Below, piece after piece: positions 3,891 through 64,000 of a stretch of DNA of 64,000 bases. The position numbers were made by a program, and so were the translations under genes. The notes beneath the pieces are model-generated. The model searched no databases. It saw nothing but the letters and a program-made list of their open reading frames with translations, and had not been told where the DNA came from. Each line of letters starts with the position of its first letter. Within the stretch, counting starts at the first letter, position 1. Where the stretch lies: sequence record SRR20825019_1453. One strand, given 5' to 3'.

Positions 3891-3944
3891 TAACTTGCAT
3901 TTTGAAAGTAATTATATACTTTTACTTGCAAAACAAAAGTAAAA
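3891..3944. promoter_or_regulatory. Two palindromic operator-like boxes (ACTT-N9-AAGT) in a divergent promoter
   Basis: ACTT GCATTTTGA AAGT (3893-3909) and TTTTACTT GCAAAACAA AAGTAAAA (3920-3944), offset by 31 bp. Confidence 0.65.
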
Positions 3945-11442: not shown

Positions 11443-11577
11443 ACAGGAAAACTACAAAAATCCAACGATTCAAAATCCTTAGAAATGTTAAATCAGTTCA
11501 TATCAATGTTATGTCTGCACGGATCACTTTGATTTTAGCAACATTCTATTAAATTCGTAGGGAAAAGTGAAAATTGT

Positions 11578-12572: not shown

Positions 12573-15122
12573 ATGCCTCAATTGACCAAGCCCATTACTA
12601 CAAACTTGTTTAGTTTTAAAACATTTCGCTCACCGGATAAAATTGATTTCAACGAGAAGGAAGAATTCTTTATTCATCATCCTGATGTAACACTGAGTGC
12701 ATTTAATCAATGTCCAATTCCAAGAGAAGGCGAGGGTTCAACTGATCAGCTTGACACATTTATCAATGGCTTCCAACCTGCAAAGAACTATAAAGAAATA
12801 AGAGGCATACACCCTGAATTGTACGACTTCTCATGTTTGCTCATGCAGCAGAAGAGAAACGACACTACGAAAAGAGAACTTAATGCAGAACTGCCTGAAG
12901 CTCTAGATGATGAGGAAATTTTAAAAGTTTGGGATGAATTGTTTGTTCAGACGGCTACTCAAGCATCCAAAACTGTACGGCAGGCTTGTATTCAGTTGAT
13001 AATTGCGCAGCATTATGTACGAAATAATAAAACCCTCGAATTAAGCGATGTATCAAAATTAGTGGTTGTCATCCCAGACGTTGTAATCGCTTGTTTCAAA
13101 CCGTGGAGATATTCCAATTGTGGAGGAGAAATGTTCGGAGTTCAAAATCTTGGTGTCCAAGAGTACAGAAGAGTTGAACAAACGCTTTGCTGCTATGTAC
13201 CTGGTGAAGTTTCTCACATCGAGAATATCATGGCACGAGAATACAAGGAAAAAAGTACACGTAACTTATTACGAACCGAGTACACCACAGAGATTACCAA
13301 TGAAACCGAAATTGAAAATATCAATGATACAACAACAACAGAACGGCATGAGTTGAGTTCTGAGGCTGCAAAGGAATTACAAAAGGACAAATCATTTGAT
13401 ATTAGCGGTTCTGTTACTGTCTCGAAAGACTCAAAAGCATTTGGAAGTATTTCTGCGAATGTAAGTTCGGGTTACAACAGTAGCACTTCCTCTTCTCAAT
13501 CGAATACCGAGGCAAAGAATTATGCCAAGGAAATCACAGAAAGAGCACTTGAAAGAGTGGTTCAAAAAACGACTGAGAAGCGCACCTTCAAAATGATTAG
13601 GGAGTTTGAAGAGAATAACAAACACGGTTTTGATAACACAAAAGGTGTTCAGCACGTTACGGGAGTTTACCGTTGGGTCGACAAAGTGTATGATAATGAA
13701 CTCGTCAACTACGGCAGACGTTTGTTGTTTGAAATCAGTGTGCCGAGTCCAGCTGAGTTTTACAAAAAAGCAATGGCATGGCAGTCGAAAACAGCGGAAT
13801 CAGCTGCTGCTGTGCTTACACCTCCTAAAACATTGGCAAATTTTGGTTTAAACTCTTCATCTGATATAAAGAATGATATTATCACTGCTGCAAACCAAGA
13901 ATACGGTACATCAATAGAAACATATACTGCTGAAGTCCGATATCAGGATGTTAGTTTTGGCGCTGAAACCAATCATTATCATGCAACGAAAACAGATGTT
14001 CGAAGTGCCATTTCAATTGAACCAGGTTTTGTGGCAGATAGAATAGATGGTATTGGAAGTTTTCAACATAACGGAAGTGGCAACACCAAAGCCTATTTGA
14101 GAATAAACATTGCGAATGCACAAGTCTATCGCGGAGATTACCAATCAGGTTCTAAGCAAACGGATAATTTTAATATCAACATTGACCTCTCTCCAAATGT
14201 TGTGGGATCTGCCTCGTTCTCTATTTCATACAGAAAGGTCTATAATTACAGCGGTTCATTTAAGGTGAAACTGATTTCCGATCCTGTCTTATACACCGAA
14301 TGGCAAGAAGAAACATTCTTAGCTTTACAAGCCGCTTATCAAGATAAATTAGATGCGTACAACGACGAATTAGCACTCCAGCAAGCAGCACAACAAGCCG
14401 AAGCAGATCAGCAGGAAAATGATAACTACAGTAATCATGGGATGAATCGTTTGATTGAAGAGCGCGAATTGAAACGCTTGTGCATTGAAATGATGAGCAA
14501 GCCTTATTGCTACGACATGGGGAAAAGTTTCAACAAATGCAAAACGTATGCTTGCAGTTCAGATTGTGGCGAAGTTGAAAACCAAGTAACCGAAGTTATT
14601 CAAAACAGAGAATTGGAAAAATACGCTGAGTTTATCAAGTTCTTCGAAACGGCGTTCCATTGGGAGATCTTTAGCTATGTTTTCTATCCGTATTACTATG
14701 GCGCAAAATGCAATTGGTCCGAATTATTGCAAACCAAAAATGACGATCCAATTTTTGAAGCATTCTTGCAAAGTGGAATGGCAAAACTCCTAGTTCCTGT
14801 TCGCCCACAATTTGAAAAAGCAGTAATGTGGTACATTGAAACGGGTGAAATTTACACTGACGAAAACCTTGTTCCCGAAATTGAAGATGATCGTTATTTG
14901 TCATTGCTGAAAGAATTGCAAAATCAAGAAGATATCAGAGTTGAAGGAAAGTGGAAAACACGTGTGCCTTCTGCCCTTACGATTATTCAAGCGAAATCAA
15001 CGTATTTGGAAGATGCAAAAGGCTTACCTTGTTGTGATGATGAATCTGAAGCTTTTGGAAGTGATGGACGTTTGTTGGAGAATTTAGCAACTGAGACTGA
15101 CCCAGTAACTCAACCTGAATGA
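12573..15122 (+). CDS. Large hypothetical protein; possible pore-forming/translocon component
   Basis: 849-aa ORF with no signal peptide or T9SS CTD. It has a Ser/Thr-rich alternating segment (aa ~273-312), a coiled-coil-like LQAAYQDKLDAYNDELALQQ stretch and many Cys. The gene is secure; the function is inferred. Confidence 0.6.
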   Translation: MPQLTKPITTNLFSFKTFRSPDKIDFNEKEEFFIHHPDVTLSAFNQCPIPREGEGSTDQLDTFINGFQPAKNYKEIRGIHPELYDFSCLLMQQKRNDTTKRELNAELPEALDDEEILKVWDELFVQTATQASKTVRQACIQLIIAQHYVRNNKTLELSDVSKLVVVIPDVVIACFKPWRYSNCGGEMFGVQNLGVQEYRRVEQTLCCYVPGEVSHIENIMAREYKEKSTRNLLRTEYTTEITNETEIENINDTTTTERHELSSEAAKELQKDKSFDISGSVTVSKDSKAFGSISANVSSGYNSSTSSSQSNTEAKNYAKEITERALERVVQKTTEKRTFKMIREFEENNKHGFDNTKGVQHVTGVYRWVDKVYDNELVNYGRRLLFEISVPSPAEFYKKAMAWQSKTAESAAAVLTPPKTLANFGLNSSSDIKNDIITAANQEYGTSIETYTAEVRYQDVSFGAETNHYHATKTDVRSAISIEPGFVADRIDGIGSFQHNGSGNTKAYLRINIANAQVYRGDYQSGSKQTDNFNINIDLSPNVVGSASFSISYRKVYNYSGSFKVKLISDPVLYTEWQEETFLALQAAYQDKLDAYNDELALQQAAQQAEADQQENDNYSNHGMNRLIEERELKRLCIEMMSKPYCYDMGKSFNKCKTYACSSDCGEVENQVTEVIQNRELEKYAEFIKFFETAFHWEIFSYVFYPYYYGAKCNWSELLQTKNDDPIFEAFLQSGMAKLLVPVRPQFEKAVMWYIETGEIYTDENLVPEIEDDRYLSLLKELQNQEDIRVEGKWKTRVPSALTIIQAKSTYLEDAKGLPCCDDESEAFGSDGRLLENLATETDPVTQPE

Positions 15123-57396: not shown

Positions 57397-58707
57397 TTAT
57401 TTCTTTCTAAAGAAAATCTTAATTGGAACTCCCTGGAAGTTAAACTTCTCACGGAGTCTATTCTCAACAAATCGTTTGTAACCATCACCGATATACTGCG
57501 GAAGATTACAGAAGAAAGCAAATGCAGGCGCGTGTGTTGGCAACTGCTGAACGTATTTAATCTTAATGTATTTTCCTTTCAATGATGGAGGTGGAGTTGC
57601 CTGAACAATTTCCAACATCACATCATTCAACGTGGAAGTTGGGATTTTTTGAATTCTATTGTTGAACACTTCCATCGCCGTTTCCAAAGTCTTGTGGATT
57701 CTTTGCTTCGTGATCGTTGATGTAAAAATAATCGGAACGTCTTTGAAAGGCGCTAAATCTTCTCTGATTTGTTCTTCAAATTCCAGCATCGTTTTATGAT
57801 CTTTGTCGACCAAATCCCACTTGTTTACAACAACAACAACACCTTTTGAGTTCTTCTCGATCACATAGAAAATGTTCAAATCTTGCTTCTGAATCCCTTC
57901 TGTTGCGTCGATCATAAAAATACACACGTCGGAAGTTTCAATCGCTCTTACTGAACGCAGTACCGAATAGTACTCAATATCTTCCGTCACTTTCGCCTTC
58001 TTTCTAATTCCAGCTGTATCTACCAACATGAAATCAAATCCAAAAGCATTATATCGCGAGTTGATCGCATCTCTCGTTGTTCCAGAAACGTTGGTAACGA
58101 TGTTACGCTCTTTTCCCGTTAGCGCGTTGACTAACGAAGATTTTCCTACGTTTGGTTTTCCTACAACTGCGAAATGCGGTAGGGCATCTTCCTCGCGTTG
58201 TGAATCGAAATCTTTGTCAAATTCCTTCACCATATCGTCAAGCAATTCTCCTGTTCCACTTCCATTGGTAGCAGAAAGATCGTACACATCTCCTAGTCCA
58301 AGCGACCAAAATTCGGAGGACAAACCAACGCGATCATTACTGTCTACTTTATTCGCAACGATATAGACTTTCTTTTTCGCCTTGCGAAGCAATAAAGCAA
58401 CAACTTCATCTAAATCTACGATGCCCGTCATTACGTCCACCATAAAGATGATTGCATTTGCTTCATCAATCGCTAATTCTACTTGTTTTCGGATTTCTCC
58501 TTCGAAAATATCATCCGAACCTTTTACGTAACCACCTGTATCGATCACCGAAAACTCGATGCCGTTCCATTGACCGTGACCATAAATCCGATCGCGAGTA
58601 ACTCCGCTTACTTCTTTTACAATGGCTTGATTTGATTCTGTGAGTCGGTTAAAAAGGGTAGATTTTCCCACATTTGGGCGACCTACGATTGCGATAATAT
58701 TTCCCAT
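57397..58707 (-). CDS. der: Ribosome biogenesis GTPase Der (EngA)
   Basis: Two GTPase domains (GRPNVGKS/DTGG/NKVD and GKPNVGKS/DTAG/NKWD). Confidence 0.97.
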   Translation of the reverse strand: MGNIIAIVGRPNVGKSTLFNRLTESNQAIVKEVSGVTRDRIYGHGQWNGIEFSVIDTGGYVKGSDDIFEGEIRKQVELAIDEANAIIFMVDVMTGIVDLDEVVALLLRKAKKKVYIVANKVDSNDRVGLSSEFWSLGLGDVYDLSATNGSGTGELLDDMVKEFDKDFDSQREEDALPHFAVVGKPNVGKSSLVNALTGKERNIVTNVSGTTRDAINSRYNAFGFDFMLVDTAGIRKKAKVTEDIEYYSVLRSVRAIETSDVCIFMIDATEGIQKQDLNIFYVIEKNSKGVVVVVNKWDLVDKDHKTMLEFEEQIREDLAPFKDVPIIFTSTITKQRIHKTLETAMEVFNNRIQKIPTSTLNDVMLEIVQATPPPSLKGKYIKIKYVQQLPTHAPAFAFFCNLPQYIGDGYKRFVENRLREKFNFQGVPIKIFFRKK

Positions 58708-58745
58708 AATTTTTTAGATAATCCTACTAAGTGCGTTTGTGCGAC

Positions 58746-59621
58746 CTAGTATCCGTATTTTTTTAGTTTTTGTTCTGAACCTCTCCAGTCTTTATCCACT
58801 TTTACAAATGTTTCAAGGAACACTTTACTGTCGATGAATTTTTCAATTTCTATTCGTGCTTCTCTACCGATTCGTTTCAACATTTCACCACCTTGACCGA
58901 TCACAATTCCCTTTTGAGAATCTCGTTCAACGATGATCAAAGCACGAATTCGTGTGATGGTATCTTCCTCGAGGTATTCCTCAATTTCAACTTGACATGA
59001 ATAAGGAATTTCCTTTTGGCAATGGATGAAGATTTTTTCACGAATGATTTCCGATACAAAAAAGCGCATTGGTCGATCTGAAATCGCTTCTTTATCAAAG
59101 TAAGGCGGGTTTTCAGGAATTCCATGTAGAATTTCTTCCCAAACACCATCAACATTAAACTTATGCAAGGCCGAAACGGGAAAAACATTCGCATTTGGAA
59201 GTCTTTCTTGCCAGTATTCAACACGTTCTCTAATCGCTTCTTGATCTGAAAGATCCATTTTGTTTATCAAACACAACACTGGAACTTTTAATCGTTGAAT
59301 GCGCTCAAGTGTCGCCTGATGATTCATTTCGCTCTCTTTTGGATCGGTTACGAAAATCACCACGTCAGCATCTTTGATGGACATGTTCACGGAATTCATC
59401 ATGTTCTCATGCAGCTTGTACGCTGCGTTTACTACTCCAGGAGTATCTGAAAAAACGATTTGATAATCGTCATTGTTTACGATCCCAAGAATCCGATGTC
59501 TAGTCGTTTGTGCCTTTGAAGTAACGATGGATAATTTCTCTCCAACGAGGCAATTCATCAAGGTTGACTTCCCAACATTGGGACTTCCTACGATACTAAC
59601 AAAACCTGATTTATGCGCCAT
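58746..59621 (-). CDS. era: GTPase Era
   Basis: GSPNVGKS, QTTR, DTPG and NKMD motifs; KH domain VIGQGGEMLK. Confidence 0.97.
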   Translation of the reverse strand: MAHKSGFVSIVGSPNVGKSTLMNCLVGEKLSIVTSKAQTTRHRILGIVNNDDYQIVFSDTPGVVNAAYKLHENMMNSVNMSIKDADVVIFVTDPKESEMNHQATLERIQRLKVPVLCLINKMDLSDQEAIRERVEYWQERLPNANVFPVSALHKFNVDGVWEEILHGIPENPPYFDKEAISDRPMRFFVSEIIREKIFIHCQKEIPYSCQVEIEEYLEEDTITRIRALIIVERDSQKGIVIGQGGEMLKRIGREARIEIEKFIDSKVFLETFVKVDKDWRGSEQKLKKYGY

Positions 59622-59665: not shown

Positions 59666-60034
59666 TTATCCTACTTTCTTTAAATACAGTCGTTCAGACC
59701 TATCAGATTTCTGTTTTGAGGGTGCCAAAATCATCTTTTTGCTGTTTATTTTGATGATCTCCATGGCATCTGCATCTCTACCAGGACGTACTTCGATATA
59801 GATAGTCTTGGTCGATTCGTCGTAAACGTATTTTGCTTTTTTAGAATTACCACTTTCTGAAAATTCCTTAATGACTAACGTTTCGTCTGTTCCAAAAGTC
59901 AACTGAATTTTAGGAATTTTTTTCGTTTTGCCTGTTATTTTATAAATCTCCCATGTTCCCACAATCTTTTCCTGGGTCGTTGCTGAAATTAAAATAAAAG
60001 CGAGAAAGAGGAAAATTAGCTGTCGTGTTCTCAT
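59666..60034 (-). CDS. Small secreted lipocalin-like hypothetical protein
   Basis: Signal peptide; IVGTW motif; beta-rich; ATGA overlap with the upstream stop. Confidence 0.65.
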   Translation of the reverse strand: MRTRQLIFLFLAFILISATTQEKIVGTWEIYKITGKTKKIPKIQLTFGTDETLVIKEFSESGNSKKAKYVYDESTKTIYIEVRPGRDADAMEIIKINSKKMILAPSKQKSDRSERLYLKKVG

Positions 60035-62187
60035 TTTTTGATTCCTTCTAAGTCGAGAATAAATGCATATTCTAGCGCAACTTCCTTGTATCGTTCAAAT
60101 CTTCCTGAGGCACCACCGTGACCAACTTTCATATTACAATGCATCATGAGTTTGTTGGAGTCGGTTTTGTATTCTCGCAATTTGGCGATCCATTTAGCAG
60201 GTTCCCAATACTGTACTTGGCTGTCCCAGTAACCTGTCGTAATTAGTAAGTTTGGATATTCCTTTTTCTCAATATTGTCATACGGAGAGTATGATTTAAT
60301 GTATTCGTAGTACGTTTTATCTTTTGGATTTCCCCATTCGTCAAACTCTCCTGTAGTCAAGGGAATCGATTCATCCAACATGGTAGAAACGACATCCACA
60401 AATGGAACTTGAGCAATAACGCCATTCCATAATTTTGGTTCAATATTGATAATTGCTCCCATCAATAATCCACCAGCACTTCCACCTTGGGCATACAAAT
60501 GCTCCGAAGAAGTAAAATTGTTTTTAATCAAGTGTTTTCCACAATCTATGAAATCATAAAAGGTATTTTTCTTTTTCAAGAGTTTCCCGTTTTCGTACCA
60601 TTCACGTCCCATTTCTTGACCTCCACGAATATGTGCAATGGCAAAAGCAAATCCTCGATCGAGTAAACTCAAACGAACAGAACTAAAATATGGATCCATC
60701 GTTGCACCGTAAGAACCGTATCCATAAAGCAAGAGAGGTGATTTTCCGTCTTTTTTATATCCTTTTTTGTAAACGATAGAAATAGGAACTTTTACTCCGT
60801 CTCGCGATGTTGCGAAGATGCGCTCTGAAACATAATTCTCAGAAGAGAACTTTCCTCCAAGAACTTCTTGTTGTTTGAGTTGTGTGCGTTTTTTGGTTTT
60901 CAGGTTGTAATCGTAAACGGTATGTGGAGTCGTTAACGACGTGTAATTGAATCGCAATACATCTGTAGCAAATTCTGGATTGTCAAAAGTACCCGCAGAA
61001 TATGTTGGGTCATTAAAAGAAATGTAATGTTCAGAATTGTCAGCCCATTTAATTACGCGCAATTGGTTTAATCCATCTTTACGCTCTGAAACAACCAAGT
61101 AATCTTTGAAAATGTCAATTCCTTCGAGTAGAACATTTGAACGGTGTGCGATCACTTCAGTCCAGTTGTCCTTCGATGTTTTTGCAACGGGTGTTTTCAT
61201 CAAACGGAAATTCTTCGCTTTATGATTTGTAACGATATAGAAATCATCCCCATAATGATCTACGGAATATTCCAAATCTCTTTCACGAGGCTGAATGACC
61301 TTCCAAGTTCCCTCTGGATTGTCAGCATCTAAGTAGCGATATTCCGTTGAAAGCGTTTGGTATGAAGCAATCATTAGGAATTTGCGCGATTTAGTTTTGA
61401 AAACCGTACATCCGAATGTCTCATCCTTTTCTTCAAAAACGACTACATCGGCATTTTGATCCGTTCCCAATGTATGTCTGTAAATTCGGTAAGATCGCAA
61501 AGTGATAGGATCTTTCTTTGAATAGAAAAAGCTCTTGTTATCATTCGCCCAAGTGATTCGCCCTTCTGTATTTTCAATTTTGTCGCTCAGTGTTTTTCCT
61601 GTCTTCAAATTCTTCACGTGGATGGTATATTGTCTGCGTGAAACGAGATCCAAGCTATATGCGAGTAATTCATTATTCTCACTCACTGATTGATCACCCA
61701 CGGCAAAATAACTCTTTCCTTTAGCCATTTTAGGACAATCCAGCATGATTTCTTCTTTCCCCGATTCTGAACCTTCTTTTCTACAGTAGAAAGGATAATC
61801 TTGACCTTCGGCATAGCGACTATAATACACGTAGCCGTTCACTTTCACAGGAACCGACTCATCATCTTGCTTGATGCGCCCAACAATTTCATCGTAAAGC
61901 GATTTTTGTAAAGGCTCAGTATGCTTCATTACTTGCGACAGGTAATCGTTCTCTGCGTTGAGATAATCTAGAACGTCCTTTGTTTGAGCATCTGGAGTTG
62001 TGGCATTCTTTTGCTCGTCAGAAAGTCGCATCCAGAAGTAGTTATCTATACGCTCATCCCCATGAGTCGTTATTTTCTCTTCAATTTTTTTTGCCTGTGG
62101 AGGTGTAATCATATTTTGTGGTGTATCTGATGTAGATGAACAACTCGCAATAATACTGAGAATGCTTAAATGAACGATTTTTTTCAT
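60031..62187 (-). CDS. ptrB: Oligopeptidase B (S9A), lipoprotein signal
   Basis: DNYFW, YGYGSYG, GGSAGG nucleophile, DSQV and GHGG motifs; lipobox IASC. Confidence 0.92.
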   Translation of the reverse strand: MKKIVHLSILSIIASCSSTSDTPQNMITPPQAKKIEEKITTHGDERIDNYFWMRLSDEQKNATTPDAQTKDVLDYLNAENDYLSQVMKHTEPLQKSLYDEIVGRIKQDDESVPVKVNGYVYYSRYAEGQDYPFYCRKEGSESGKEEIMLDCPKMAKGKSYFAVGDQSVSENNELLAYSLDLVSRRQYTIHVKNLKTGKTLSDKIENTEGRITWANDNKSFFYSKKDPITLRSYRIYRHTLGTDQNADVVVFEEKDETFGCTVFKTKSRKFLMIASYQTLSTEYRYLDADNPEGTWKVIQPRERDLEYSVDHYGDDFYIVTNHKAKNFRLMKTPVAKTSKDNWTEVIAHRSNVLLEGIDIFKDYLVVSERKDGLNQLRVIKWADNSEHYISFNDPTYSAGTFDNPEFATDVLRFNYTSLTTPHTVYDYNLKTKKRTQLKQQEVLGGKFSSENYVSERIFATSRDGVKVPISIVYKKGYKKDGKSPLLLYGYGSYGATMDPYFSSVRLSLLDRGFAFAIAHIRGGQEMGREWYENGKLLKKKNTFYDFIDCGKHLIKNNFTSSEHLYAQGGSAGGLLMGAIINIEPKLWNGVIAQVPFVDVVSTMLDESIPLTTGEFDEWGNPKDKTYYEYIKSYSPYDNIEKKEYPNLLITTGYWDSQVQYWEPAKWIAKLREYKTDSNKLMMHCNMKVGHGGASGRFERYKEVALEYAFILDLEGIKK

Positions 62188-62288
62188 GGAGATTAAATTT
62201 CGGAGATCAAGTTAATTAAATTTCGAATTAGATGATTGAATTTTAACATCGTTTGTTTGATTGTTCCTTGTAATCTGATACTTACATC

Positions 62289-62389
62289 GGTTCAGAGGGG
62301 TGTTTTTCACTTTTTTGAGTTTGGATAGGAAAATGAGATGTTTAAACCCTTTTAGACCTGAAAATCATCCAAATGAATGAGGCGGAATT
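62289..62389 (+). ncRNA. TPP-riboswitch-like structured leader (divergent variant)
   Basis: Motif order GGGGTG...TGAGA...ACCC...ACCTGA...AGG with pairable P2, P3, P4 and P5; L5 and J5/4 deviate from consensus. Confidence 0.5.
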
Positions 62390-62475
62390 CACCAGAATGT
62401 TGTTAAATTGTGATAAGTCAGCAGTTAAGGCAAAGTGTCTGATGATAATTGTTGATGTAACCTAAATGAATCATT

Positions 62476-64000
62476 ATGAGATTTTTAAAAAACAAAAGCT
62501 TTTGGCGTCTAGTTTCTTTTGGCGCTTTATGTATCCCTTTTTCGGGTAAGCTTAACGCTCAAAACAATTTCCCCATTCTATTAAGTTCCAATGGAGCCGA
62601 TGTACACATTGAATCAATGGATGTAGATGCTGGTGGGGACATTTATGTAACAGGTAGAATAGGCTCGTACAATCAATTTACATTTGCTCCTGGAACATGC
62701 GGTTGGAATGTAAATGCTAGTCCGGGGTCGTATCCACCTCCTTTTACTGGTTCGCACAACGATTTTTTCGCGGCGCGTTTTCATCCTGATCCATCGATGT
62801 CATCAAATAAACTGGTTTGGATGGTAGTAGGAAGAAGTACAATCAGTACAACATCACCATTTTCCTCTGGTAAGGATATCGAAGTGGACAGTGGTGAAAA
62901 TGCTTATGTAGTTGGTTCCACTGAGGGTTCCGTTGAAATTAAGCGTGTATATCCGGGGCCACTTTACCCATCTATTCCAATGTGCCCAGGAACAACAGCG
63001 AGTAGATTTTTTGTCTTGAAAATAGATGCAAACGGAGTCCCGAATTGGGTTGCTGATATGCGCGCTGAAACGTGGGGAATCTCTCACGGAGAAGCAGTTG
63101 CACTTGATGAAGAGAATAACCGATTGTTTGTAGGAGGTTACACGATGGTGAATGGTTCGGCGCAAGTAATGACGATGAGAAATGCGGATTGCACGGATCA
63201 GTGTTCTTTTTTAGCCACACCAACATCTACTGGAAATCAAGGGTTTATTGCAGAATATACCATGGGCGGGGTGAATATGCGTGGAGATACGCTTGGCGAG
63301 CGAGTAATGGCACTTGCGGTTGACAAAACAGATCACGAACACGTTTGGGCAACTGGCGGGATTATTGGAACTGACCTGAATGTGATGCTTGCTGATGTCT
63401 TTATGGATGTTGTGGATGATCCTTGTATTAATTTCTCCGCTTCATTTGTGCCTATCTGGGGAGTGGGTGATGACCTTGGAATGGACATTGCTTTTACCAA
63501 TAACAACGTTGTTATGCTTACTGGCGCGTTTACGCATCAACTGATCTGGACAACAGGATCTCTTCCTCCAATTGGTTCAACGAACACAGACATTTTTGTC
63601 GGGAGGTATGATATTGGATTGACTAACTTCCGAACAACTTCTTCCATTCCTTTTGGTTTAGCTTCTACCGTAAACTCTACACCATACTACTTGCGAACAA
63701 GTTGTATAGGCTCAGATGACATAAATGTTGGAAGTAATCGCGTTTTAATCGGTTATGATGCCGCACCTTATGGAGTGCTAGAGTCGCAAGAAATTAATTC
63801 TTCGTTAGGTTTTATATCTACAGTTTCAACGATTACTCCAAGTGGATCAGCAGATAAAGCACGCGCTATGGAAATTGATTACTCTATTTTAGGAGCAGCT
63901 GGAGAACGTTATTTCGCTGGAGATTTTCTAGCGTCATCAGGAGGAGGAATGTTCGATTTCAACATTTGTACAATGGGATCATCATCTACATTTAAGGAAG
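62476..64000 (+). CDS. Secreted beta-propeller (SBBP-like repeat) protein, 3'-truncated by the window
   Basis: Absent from the ORF track because it has no stop; I read it open from ATG 62476 to the window end. Signal peptide MRFLKNKSFW...LNAQ; blades MDVDAGGDIYVTG, IEVDSGENAYVVG and VALDEENNRLFVGG. Confidence 0.82.
   Translation, partial: MRFLKNKSFWRLVSFGALCIPFSGKLNAQNNFPILLSSNGADVHIESMDVDAGGDIYVTGRIGSYNQFTFAPGTCGWNVNASPGSYPPPFTGSHNDFFAARFHPDPSMSSNKLVWMVVGRSTISTTSPFSSGKDIEVDSGENAYVVGSTEGSVEIKRVYPGPLYPSIPMCPGTTASRFFVLKIDANGVPNWVADMRAETWGISHGEAVALDEENNRLFVGGYTMVNGSAQVMTMRNADCTDQCSFLATPTSTGNQGFIAEYTMGGVNMRGDTLGERVMALAVDKTDHEHVWATGGIIGTDLNVMLADVFMDVVDDPCINFSASFVPIWGVGDDLGMDIAFTNNNVVMLTGAFTHQLIWTTGSLPPIGSTNTDIFVGRYDIGLTNFRTTSSIPFGLASTVNSTPYYLRTSCIGSDDINVGSNRVLIGYDAAPYGVLESQEINSSLGFISTVSTITPSGSADKARAMEIDYSILGAAGERYFAGDFLASSGGGMFDFNICTMGSSSTFKE

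Follow-up and report, generated by a model that had tools for sequence, protein, structure and literature searches.

The element at positions 62289–62389 of the sequence record SRR20825019_1453, in a stretch of 64,000 nucleotides that was analyzed at its full length (hereafter the window), is not a member of the TPP riboswitch class, because it falls outside the class in every respect that was tested: score, pyrophosphate sensor, P3 closing pair, fold, conservation, and context. It is very probably not a working riboswitch, and we infer that sensor function is absent. Its resemblance to a TPP aptamer is tentatively ascribed to chance, an explanation that stands slightly ahead of that of a decayed remnant; the data do not separate the two, since the likeness is still unusual (about 0.002–0.014 per window).

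Motifs and Drawable Layout

In a first-pass annotation, the element had been described as a TPP-riboswitch-like RNA with an altered pyrophosphate sensor, and the letters on which this description was built are all present: the P2 strands AGAGGGGT (62294–62301) and ACCCTTTT (62346–62353), the P3 strands TTTTTC (62303–62308) and GGAAAA, an intact TGAGA, ACCTGA (62356–62361), the P5 letters TCAT, CCAA, and ATGA (62365–62376), AGG (62380–62382), and a weak P1, in which GGUUC (62289–62293) faces GAAUU (62385–62389) with two G-U pairs. A full P1–P5 layout can be drawn, with AGGGGU/ACCCUU as P2, UUUUUC/GGAAAA as P3, CCU/AGG as P4, and UCAU-CCAA-AUGA as P5. The pyrimidine sensor is arranged as in TPP aptamers, that is, UGAGA is flanked by the P2 strands GGGGU (62297–62301) and ACCC (62346–62349). 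In an alignment of 12 family aptamers, the columns G12–T16 are invariant and A11 and G17 are conserved at 90 % or more; CCTGAA, as found in the candidate, is also read in two of these 12 real aptamers. The features of the locus are collected in Table 1.

Table 1. Features of the look-alike and of its genomic surroundings (positions of the window).
Feature	Position	Strand	Remark
TPP-aptamer look-alike, whole	62289–62389	+	P1-like GGUUC through GAAUU
AGGGGTG	62296–62302	+	matches the family-invariant P2 5' strand and the first P3 base
P3-like stretch	62303–62333	+	T-run 62303–62308 can pair with GGAAAA 62328–62333
TGAGA	62334–62338	+	identical to the pyrimidine-sensor motif of J3/2
ACCCTTT	62346–62352	+	matches the P2 3' strand
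ACCTGAA	62356–62362	+	matches the P4 start and J4-5
Degenerate P5-like hairpin TCAT-CCAA-ATGA, then ATG and AGG	62365–62382	+	
30-codon open frame, start in the P5-like hairpin	62373–62465	+	read by eye
Spacer between divergent genes, containing the look-alike	62188–62475		288 nt; from ORFs; GC 0.32
S9 prolyl oligopeptidase gene	60031–62187	−	Peptidase_S9_N 3.2e-109, Peptidase_S9 1.8e-64; reads away from the spacer
SBBP-like beta-propeller gene, truncated by the window end	62476–63999	+	weak Pfam/NCBIfam matches; signal-like N-terminus

The 30-codon frame begins at an ATG within the P5-like hairpin, and 10 nt separate its end from the start codon of the propeller gene. A search of NCBIfam with this frame gave no match, and nothing indicates that it is a gene.

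Genomic Setting and Host

The promoters of both divergent genes are presumably located in the spacer that holds the element. A scan for sigma-70 promoters returned nothing on the + strand. The −7 box of Bacteroidetes is TAnnTTTG; the spacer contains no exact match to it, only one-mismatch boxes at 62194, 62217, 62252, and 62316 (+) as well as at 62377 (−). No further copy of the spacer was found in the 64-kb window. Among 80 loci with S9 peptidases, the best relatives of the S9 peptidase were found in a Crocinitomicaceae MAG (78 % identity) and a Fluviicola MAG (74 %), and the host, a freshwater flavobacterium, is therefore assigned to the Crocinitomicaceae (Flavobacteriales); the collections contain no close relative of it. 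Upstream of the peptidase operon, two adjoining GTPase genes (57397–59621, −) were observed, the first encoding two GTPase domains and an EngA-type KH-like domain (Der-like) and the second a GTPase and a KH_2 domain (Era-like), and a small lipocalin-like frame (59666–60034) lies between them and the peptidase gene.

The gene downstream of the element, with its start codon at 62476, is a non-thiamine gene, as had been stated in the annotation. Its designation as a secreted beta-propeller is retained in a weaker form: the propeller assignment derives from weak SBBP matches only (in Pfam with E 0.0015, which falls short of the cut-off, and in NCBIfam with 26.6 bits where the cut-off is 400), and secretion is a reading of the hydrophobic N-terminus. 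Neither a PDB relative nor, in the genome-contig and metagenome-contig collections, any other relative of the protein was found, and of five related genomes only two gave weak matches (26 %). On these comparisons, the propeller gene appears to be lineage-specific. The look-alike lies 86 nt before its start codon, on the coding strand; for real switches, this distance amounts to 34–119 nt in 11 out of 12 cases. The annotation had also seen no terminator-type expression platform, in agreement with a terminator scan, which found no terminator-like site.

Departures from Family Aptamers

Directly before UGAGA, P3 is closed by a G-C pair in 16 and by an A-U pair in two of 18 real aptamers; the candidate has G62302 opposite A62333 and hence no closed P3 next to UGAGA. 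The linker between UGAGA and ACCC comprises 7 nt in the candidate as compared to 3–4 nt in all 18 real aptamers, and J2/4 comprises 4 nt as compared to 1–3 nt. In published TPP structures, the J5/4 CG and the bases of GGGA contact pyrophosphate-Mg. All 18 real aptamers have the CG of J5/4; in the candidate, AUG is immediately followed by AGG, the GGGA that follows P4 is changed to GGCG, the loop of P5 is CCAA, and the P5/L5 consensus is absent. All three parts of the pyrophosphate sensor (P4–P5 arm, J5/4 CG, and GGGA) accordingly deviate from the family. The altered P4/P5 arm was thus correctly recognized in the annotation, the missing J5/4 CG included.

Predicted Folding

Freely folded, 62286–62389 has a z-score of −0.02 relative to shuffled sequences and adopts a predicted structure different from the TPP-like one; for the whole spacer, z is −0.69. 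The TPP-like fold is predicted at −14.2 kcal/mol against an optimum of −22.3 kcal/mol, which corresponds to a penalty of 8.1 kcal/mol. In 12 real aptamers, the TPP-constrained fold is 0–3.4 kcal/mol from the optimum and equal to it in seven, so that the candidate, unlike the family, lacks an aptamer fold at or near the optimum. The pair probabilities, which, like the fold energies, are predictions for the ligand-free RNA, amount to 0.00 (P1), 0.09 (P2), 0.001 (P3), 0.003 (P4), and 0.014 (P5) for the candidate, and the medians of 18 real aptamers are 0.62 (P2), 0.53 (P3), 0.88 (P4), and 0.96 (P5). For P1, the median of the real aptamers is 0.06, partly because the P1 columns misfit six receptor-type aptamers. 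The TPP-like helices of the candidate can be drawn, yet according to these models they are not predicted to form.

Covariance-Model Scores

The search suggested along with the annotation, cmsearch with the Rfam TPP model (RF00059), did return a match, albeit at a permissive threshold only: on 62150–62500, scanned at E ≤10, the model scored 13.9 bits (E 3.5) at 62286–62374. This E-value refers to 351 bases, both strands, and 4227 families; rescaled, it corresponds by our own arithmetic to about 0.15 expected matches per 64-kb window for one family. The alignment keeps P1, P2, P3, and UGAGA, and the P4/P5 arm is deleted (28 model positions versus 1 base). With a gathering score of 54.3 bits for RF00059, the candidate remains 40 bits short of membership. 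No Rfam family reached its gathering score anywhere in the 64-kb window, nor did the Rfam scans yield a credible match to any other family, other riboswitch classes included. Real TPP aptamers are common in the family, as 36 of 41 Crocinitomicaceae genomes have a match over the cut-off, and the 47 family TPP matches listed all score 50.4–76.6 bits, with none lower at E ≤0.001.

A family model (R1), built from a MAFFT alignment of 12 family aptamers, gave the candidate 12.1 bits (E 1.9) at 62284–62401 with filters off and ranked it second among 12 matches in the window, behind a match of 12.4 bits at 3913. R1 models P3 and UGAGA poorly, and the test is biased against the candidate because MAFFT misaligned precisely these parts. 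In 715 kb of unrelated S9 loci, R1 produced five background matches of 14–21 bits, none of them a real switch. An nhmmer search with a profile of 18 real aptamers left the candidate unreported, since no ungapped seed passed; short, split blocks are poorly suited to this method.

How Unusual Is the Likeness?

Five block PSSMs were derived from 18 real aptamers, on the basis of the columns conserved in their anchored alignment, and were chained with wide gap ranges. The test was designed after the candidate had been seen, although the blocks themselves stem from the family alignment. The candidate reached a block-chain score of 26.7 bits at 62292–62388, as compared to 16.7 bits for the next site of the window on either strand and 50–74 bits for real aptamers. 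Of 400 first-order Markov windows, three reached 26.7 bits (Gumbel p 0.014), and the best unselected site in 772 kb of real background scored 19.9 bits. When a three-pair P3 term was included, the candidate obtained 30.3 bits versus 16.4 bits for the next site, and one of 220 third-order Markov windows reached 30.3 bits (Gumbel p 0.002). The likeness is an outlier for a single window; at about one chance occurrence per 100–500 windows, it is not rare over many. Whether it exceeds chance is borderline and depends on the measure: between a relaxed measure for a relic and a covariance model, the apparent significance differs by one to two orders of magnitude. A naive product of block frequencies (about 1e-8 per window) was dropped as post hoc, the simulated null giving 0.002–0.014.

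Other TPP-aptamer-like fragments were observed in the same window at 15083–15118 (+), 14130–14156 (−), 11555–11572 (+), and 13549–13615 (+), for example, CTGAGA..ACCC..AACCTGA, with nhmmer E-values of 0.5–2 and block-chain scores of 16–17 bits. Partial TPP matches therefore arise readily. In five related genomes, the sole sub-threshold Rfam TPP match (15.2 bits; 1501–1589, −, of the extracted locus L111) coincides in part with the end of a 296-aa open frame, and this chance match has about the strength of the candidate.

Search for Relatives and Context of Real Switches

Homologous leaders with covariation had been named in the annotation as a means of verification; none was found in 80 S9 loci, in sets of 201 and 401 family genomes, or in metagenomes. 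In the 80 loci with S9 peptidases, no counterpart of the element was present (spacer matches of 12–18 nt only), the propeller gene was beside the peptidase in none, and in those from other genomes no TPP switch stood beside the peptidase, the best R1 match being 21 bits. In 201 family genomes, the best spacer matches covered 18–52 nt, with E-values per genome down to 2.2e-4, and no match spanned the look-alike. Recurrent short BLAST matches to 62354–62385 were rejected as word coincidences, mostly with unrelated reading frames, after 13 loci had been re-examined. Across 401 family genomes, the pattern AGGGGTG-N12-42-TGAGA-N2-9-ACCCTTT was found at 60 sites and its reversed form, used as a control, at none. 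As read from the listing, 57 of these sites are canonical aptamers and three are inside long open reading frames, none of the latter three continuing with ACCTGA; a non-canonical match in a spacer was not found in any of the 401 family genomes. Likewise, a four-block pattern with the geometry of the candidate had no match in the metagenome collection. Conservation with covariation is hence lacking in these collections, which do not include the closest relatives of the organism. In public runs, the stretch was found as identical sequence only, and no RNA run is among those listed for it. Of four runs compared, all of them contigs, none offered a leader from a different strain: two match the window exactly over the part that they share with it, one reaches no further than about 100 bases of the peptidase gene, and one freshwater metagenome contains only parts of the propeller gene, at 95–97 % likeness. 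The contig of one run extends about 30 kb beyond the window end.

Of the 12 aligned real aptamers, ten precede a ThiS-like frame of 67–69 aa at a distance of 34–119 nt, one precedes a 227-aa frame that was read as ThiE-like, and one is atypical. In the closest genomes, switches stand before thiS-thiC or TonB-dependent receptors (Pfam ThiS, ThiC, and Plug domains). A tblastn search of the 64-kb window with seven proteins from the switch loci of relatives (ThiS, two ThiC-like proteins, the ThiE-like frame and its neighbor, and two receptors) gave nothing at E ≤1e-3, and no ThiS remnant was found 3' of the motif (best match, E 0.047). Within the 64-kb window, an association with thiamine genes is therefore absent. 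Among the aligned aptamers, the one in locus L090 (1501–1595, +; 70.5 bits) contrasts with the other 11 in that the first downstream frame of at least 60 aa is 307 nt away and encodes 118 aa unlike ThiS.

Competing Explanations

The explanation that we tentatively prefer is a chance look-alike of a TPP aptamer. An AT-rich spacer with the promoters and leaders for a divergent gene pair would host a sequence in which the signature blocks of the aptamer 5' half (AGGGGTG, TGAGA, ACCCTTT, and ACCTGA) happen to follow each other in the right order; the features needed for TPP aptamer function would be absent, a different fold is predicted, and no ligand would be sensed. Such a coincidence agrees with the scores (Rfam, 13.9 versus 54.3 bits, with 50.4–76.6 bits in the family; R1, 12.1 bits and rank 2 of 12), with a TPP fold 8.1 kcal/mol off the optimum and helix probabilities of at most 0.09, with the loss of both the P3 closing pair and the J5/4 CG, neither of which is missing from any of the 18 real aptamers, and with the singleton status of the element in the searched loci, genomes, and metagenomes. 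Comparable matches do occur, namely the three coding-region sites, the 15.2-bit match, and the fragments of the window, and the window is devoid of a ThiS remnant and of relatives of the queried thiamine-pathway or receptor proteins. Chance accounts less easily for the lead of 10–14 bits over the next window site in the block-chain test and for the location in a spacer, on the coding strand and 86 nt from a start codon, a position that chance does not favor; moreover, all three chance matches in the 401 genomes are inside genes and none is in a spacer. Alternatively, though with slightly less probability, the element would be what decay has left of a real TPP switch of the thiS or receptor type, a pseudo-riboswitch that no longer regulates. 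An original or copied-in switch would have lost its gene, or had it replaced by the propeller gene, whereupon P4/P5 eroded and the G/C-rich blocks of the 5' half survived. The block-chain significance of about 0.002–0.014 per window, the correct position and strand relative to the gene, the drawable P1–P5 order, and a propeller gene that has no counterpart in related genomes, as would follow from a recent change of genes at this site, are all consistent with such a history; against it stand the 80 S9 loci without a TPP switch by the peptidase, the missing remnant of a downstream thiamine gene, the E-values of both covariance models at chance level, and the 401 genomes without a non-canonical spacer match, so that remnants are not demonstrably commoner than chance matches. 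Of the suggestion in the first-pass annotation that the element is a decaying or repurposed TPP switch, decay is thus only slightly less probable than a chance look-alike, from which the data do not separate it.

The other suggestion made there, a variant riboswitch with changed specificity, found no support, and the lack of covarying homologs is an outcome that the annotation itself had set against it. A working variant derived from a TPP switch, with an intact pyrimidine sensor and a remodeled pyrophosphate arm, would respond to thiamine, HMP, or a compound akin to them and regulate either the propeller gene or the 30-codon frame. That UGAGA and both P2 strands are intact, that the start codon follows at a distance usual for real switches, and that TPP variants with a mutated core are mentioned in the relevant passages of McCown et al. 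(2017, PMC5473149) speaks for this scenario; it is nevertheless unlikely, as the element is a singleton with no homologue found in loci, family genomes, and metagenomes, the required fold is 8 kcal/mol over the optimum and has almost no share in the predicted ensemble, the pair that should close P3 next to the pyrimidine pocket is broken, no terminator or other expression platform is visible, and the gene context has no thiamine link. Its more specific form, a lineage-specific working TPP descendant through which a non-phosphorylated thiamine fragment would act on a secreted propeller gene with no known thiamine link, is more doubtful still. An ordinary working TPP riboswitch under-scored by the models would share only the motifs of the 5' half with the family, and a deficit of 40 bits to the gathering score, the absence of both the J5/4 CG and the P5/L5 consensus, and a disfavored fold make it exceedingly improbable. 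All in all, the chance look-alike is retained as the preferred explanation.

Relation to Known Riboswitches

The candidate is like the thiS-type TPP switches of Crocinitomicaceae (RF00059, THI element) in the order and sequence of AGGGGUG, UGAGA, ACCCUUU, and ACCUGA, in the position of P3, and in its placement before a start codon on the coding strand; it is unlike them in that it is not conserved and in that the downstream gene is neither part of thiS-thiC nor a TonB-dependent receptor gene. TPP variants whose pyrophosphate-binding core is mutated and whose ligand appears to be thiamin were referred to, as work in preparation, in the section of McCown et al. (2017, PMC5473149) that deals with them. 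An intact pyrimidine sensor combined with an altered P4–P5 arm makes the candidate similar in idea to the variants outlined in that section; those, however, form a large recurring collection and the candidate is a singleton, a comparison made by description and not by consensus. Because mutated-core variants have already been mentioned there, even the optimistic reading would add a new member to a known idea. In the literature from 2018 on, no publication on thiamin-sensing TPP variants was found.

A thiamine precursor, the kind of ligand proposed for the candidate, is recognized by the HMP-PP riboswitch (thiS motif), which is characterized in the pertinent part of Atilho et al. (2019, PMC6478431) as a small aptamer within an intrinsic terminator and associated with thiS. 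Unlike this riboswitch, the candidate has neither a terminator nor thiS and thus is outside the class, which, going by the same part of the paper, is architecturally unrelated to it. If the candidate did work, it would represent a thiamine-type sensor tied to a secreted protein of unknown role and a natural change of specificity. As a caution, an RNA that fails the tests of fold, score, and conservation can still carry several exact signature blocks, correctly ordered and placed.

A Hairpin Shared by Two Family Genomes

A hairpin that resembles 62365–62383 of the window was observed in two family genomes (loci L098, 1501–1525, −, and L118, 501–525, −). Both share TCATCC-AAAT-GGATGA, followed by GGCC and a T-run, with no long open frame over the stretch, which may be a small conserved element or a terminator.
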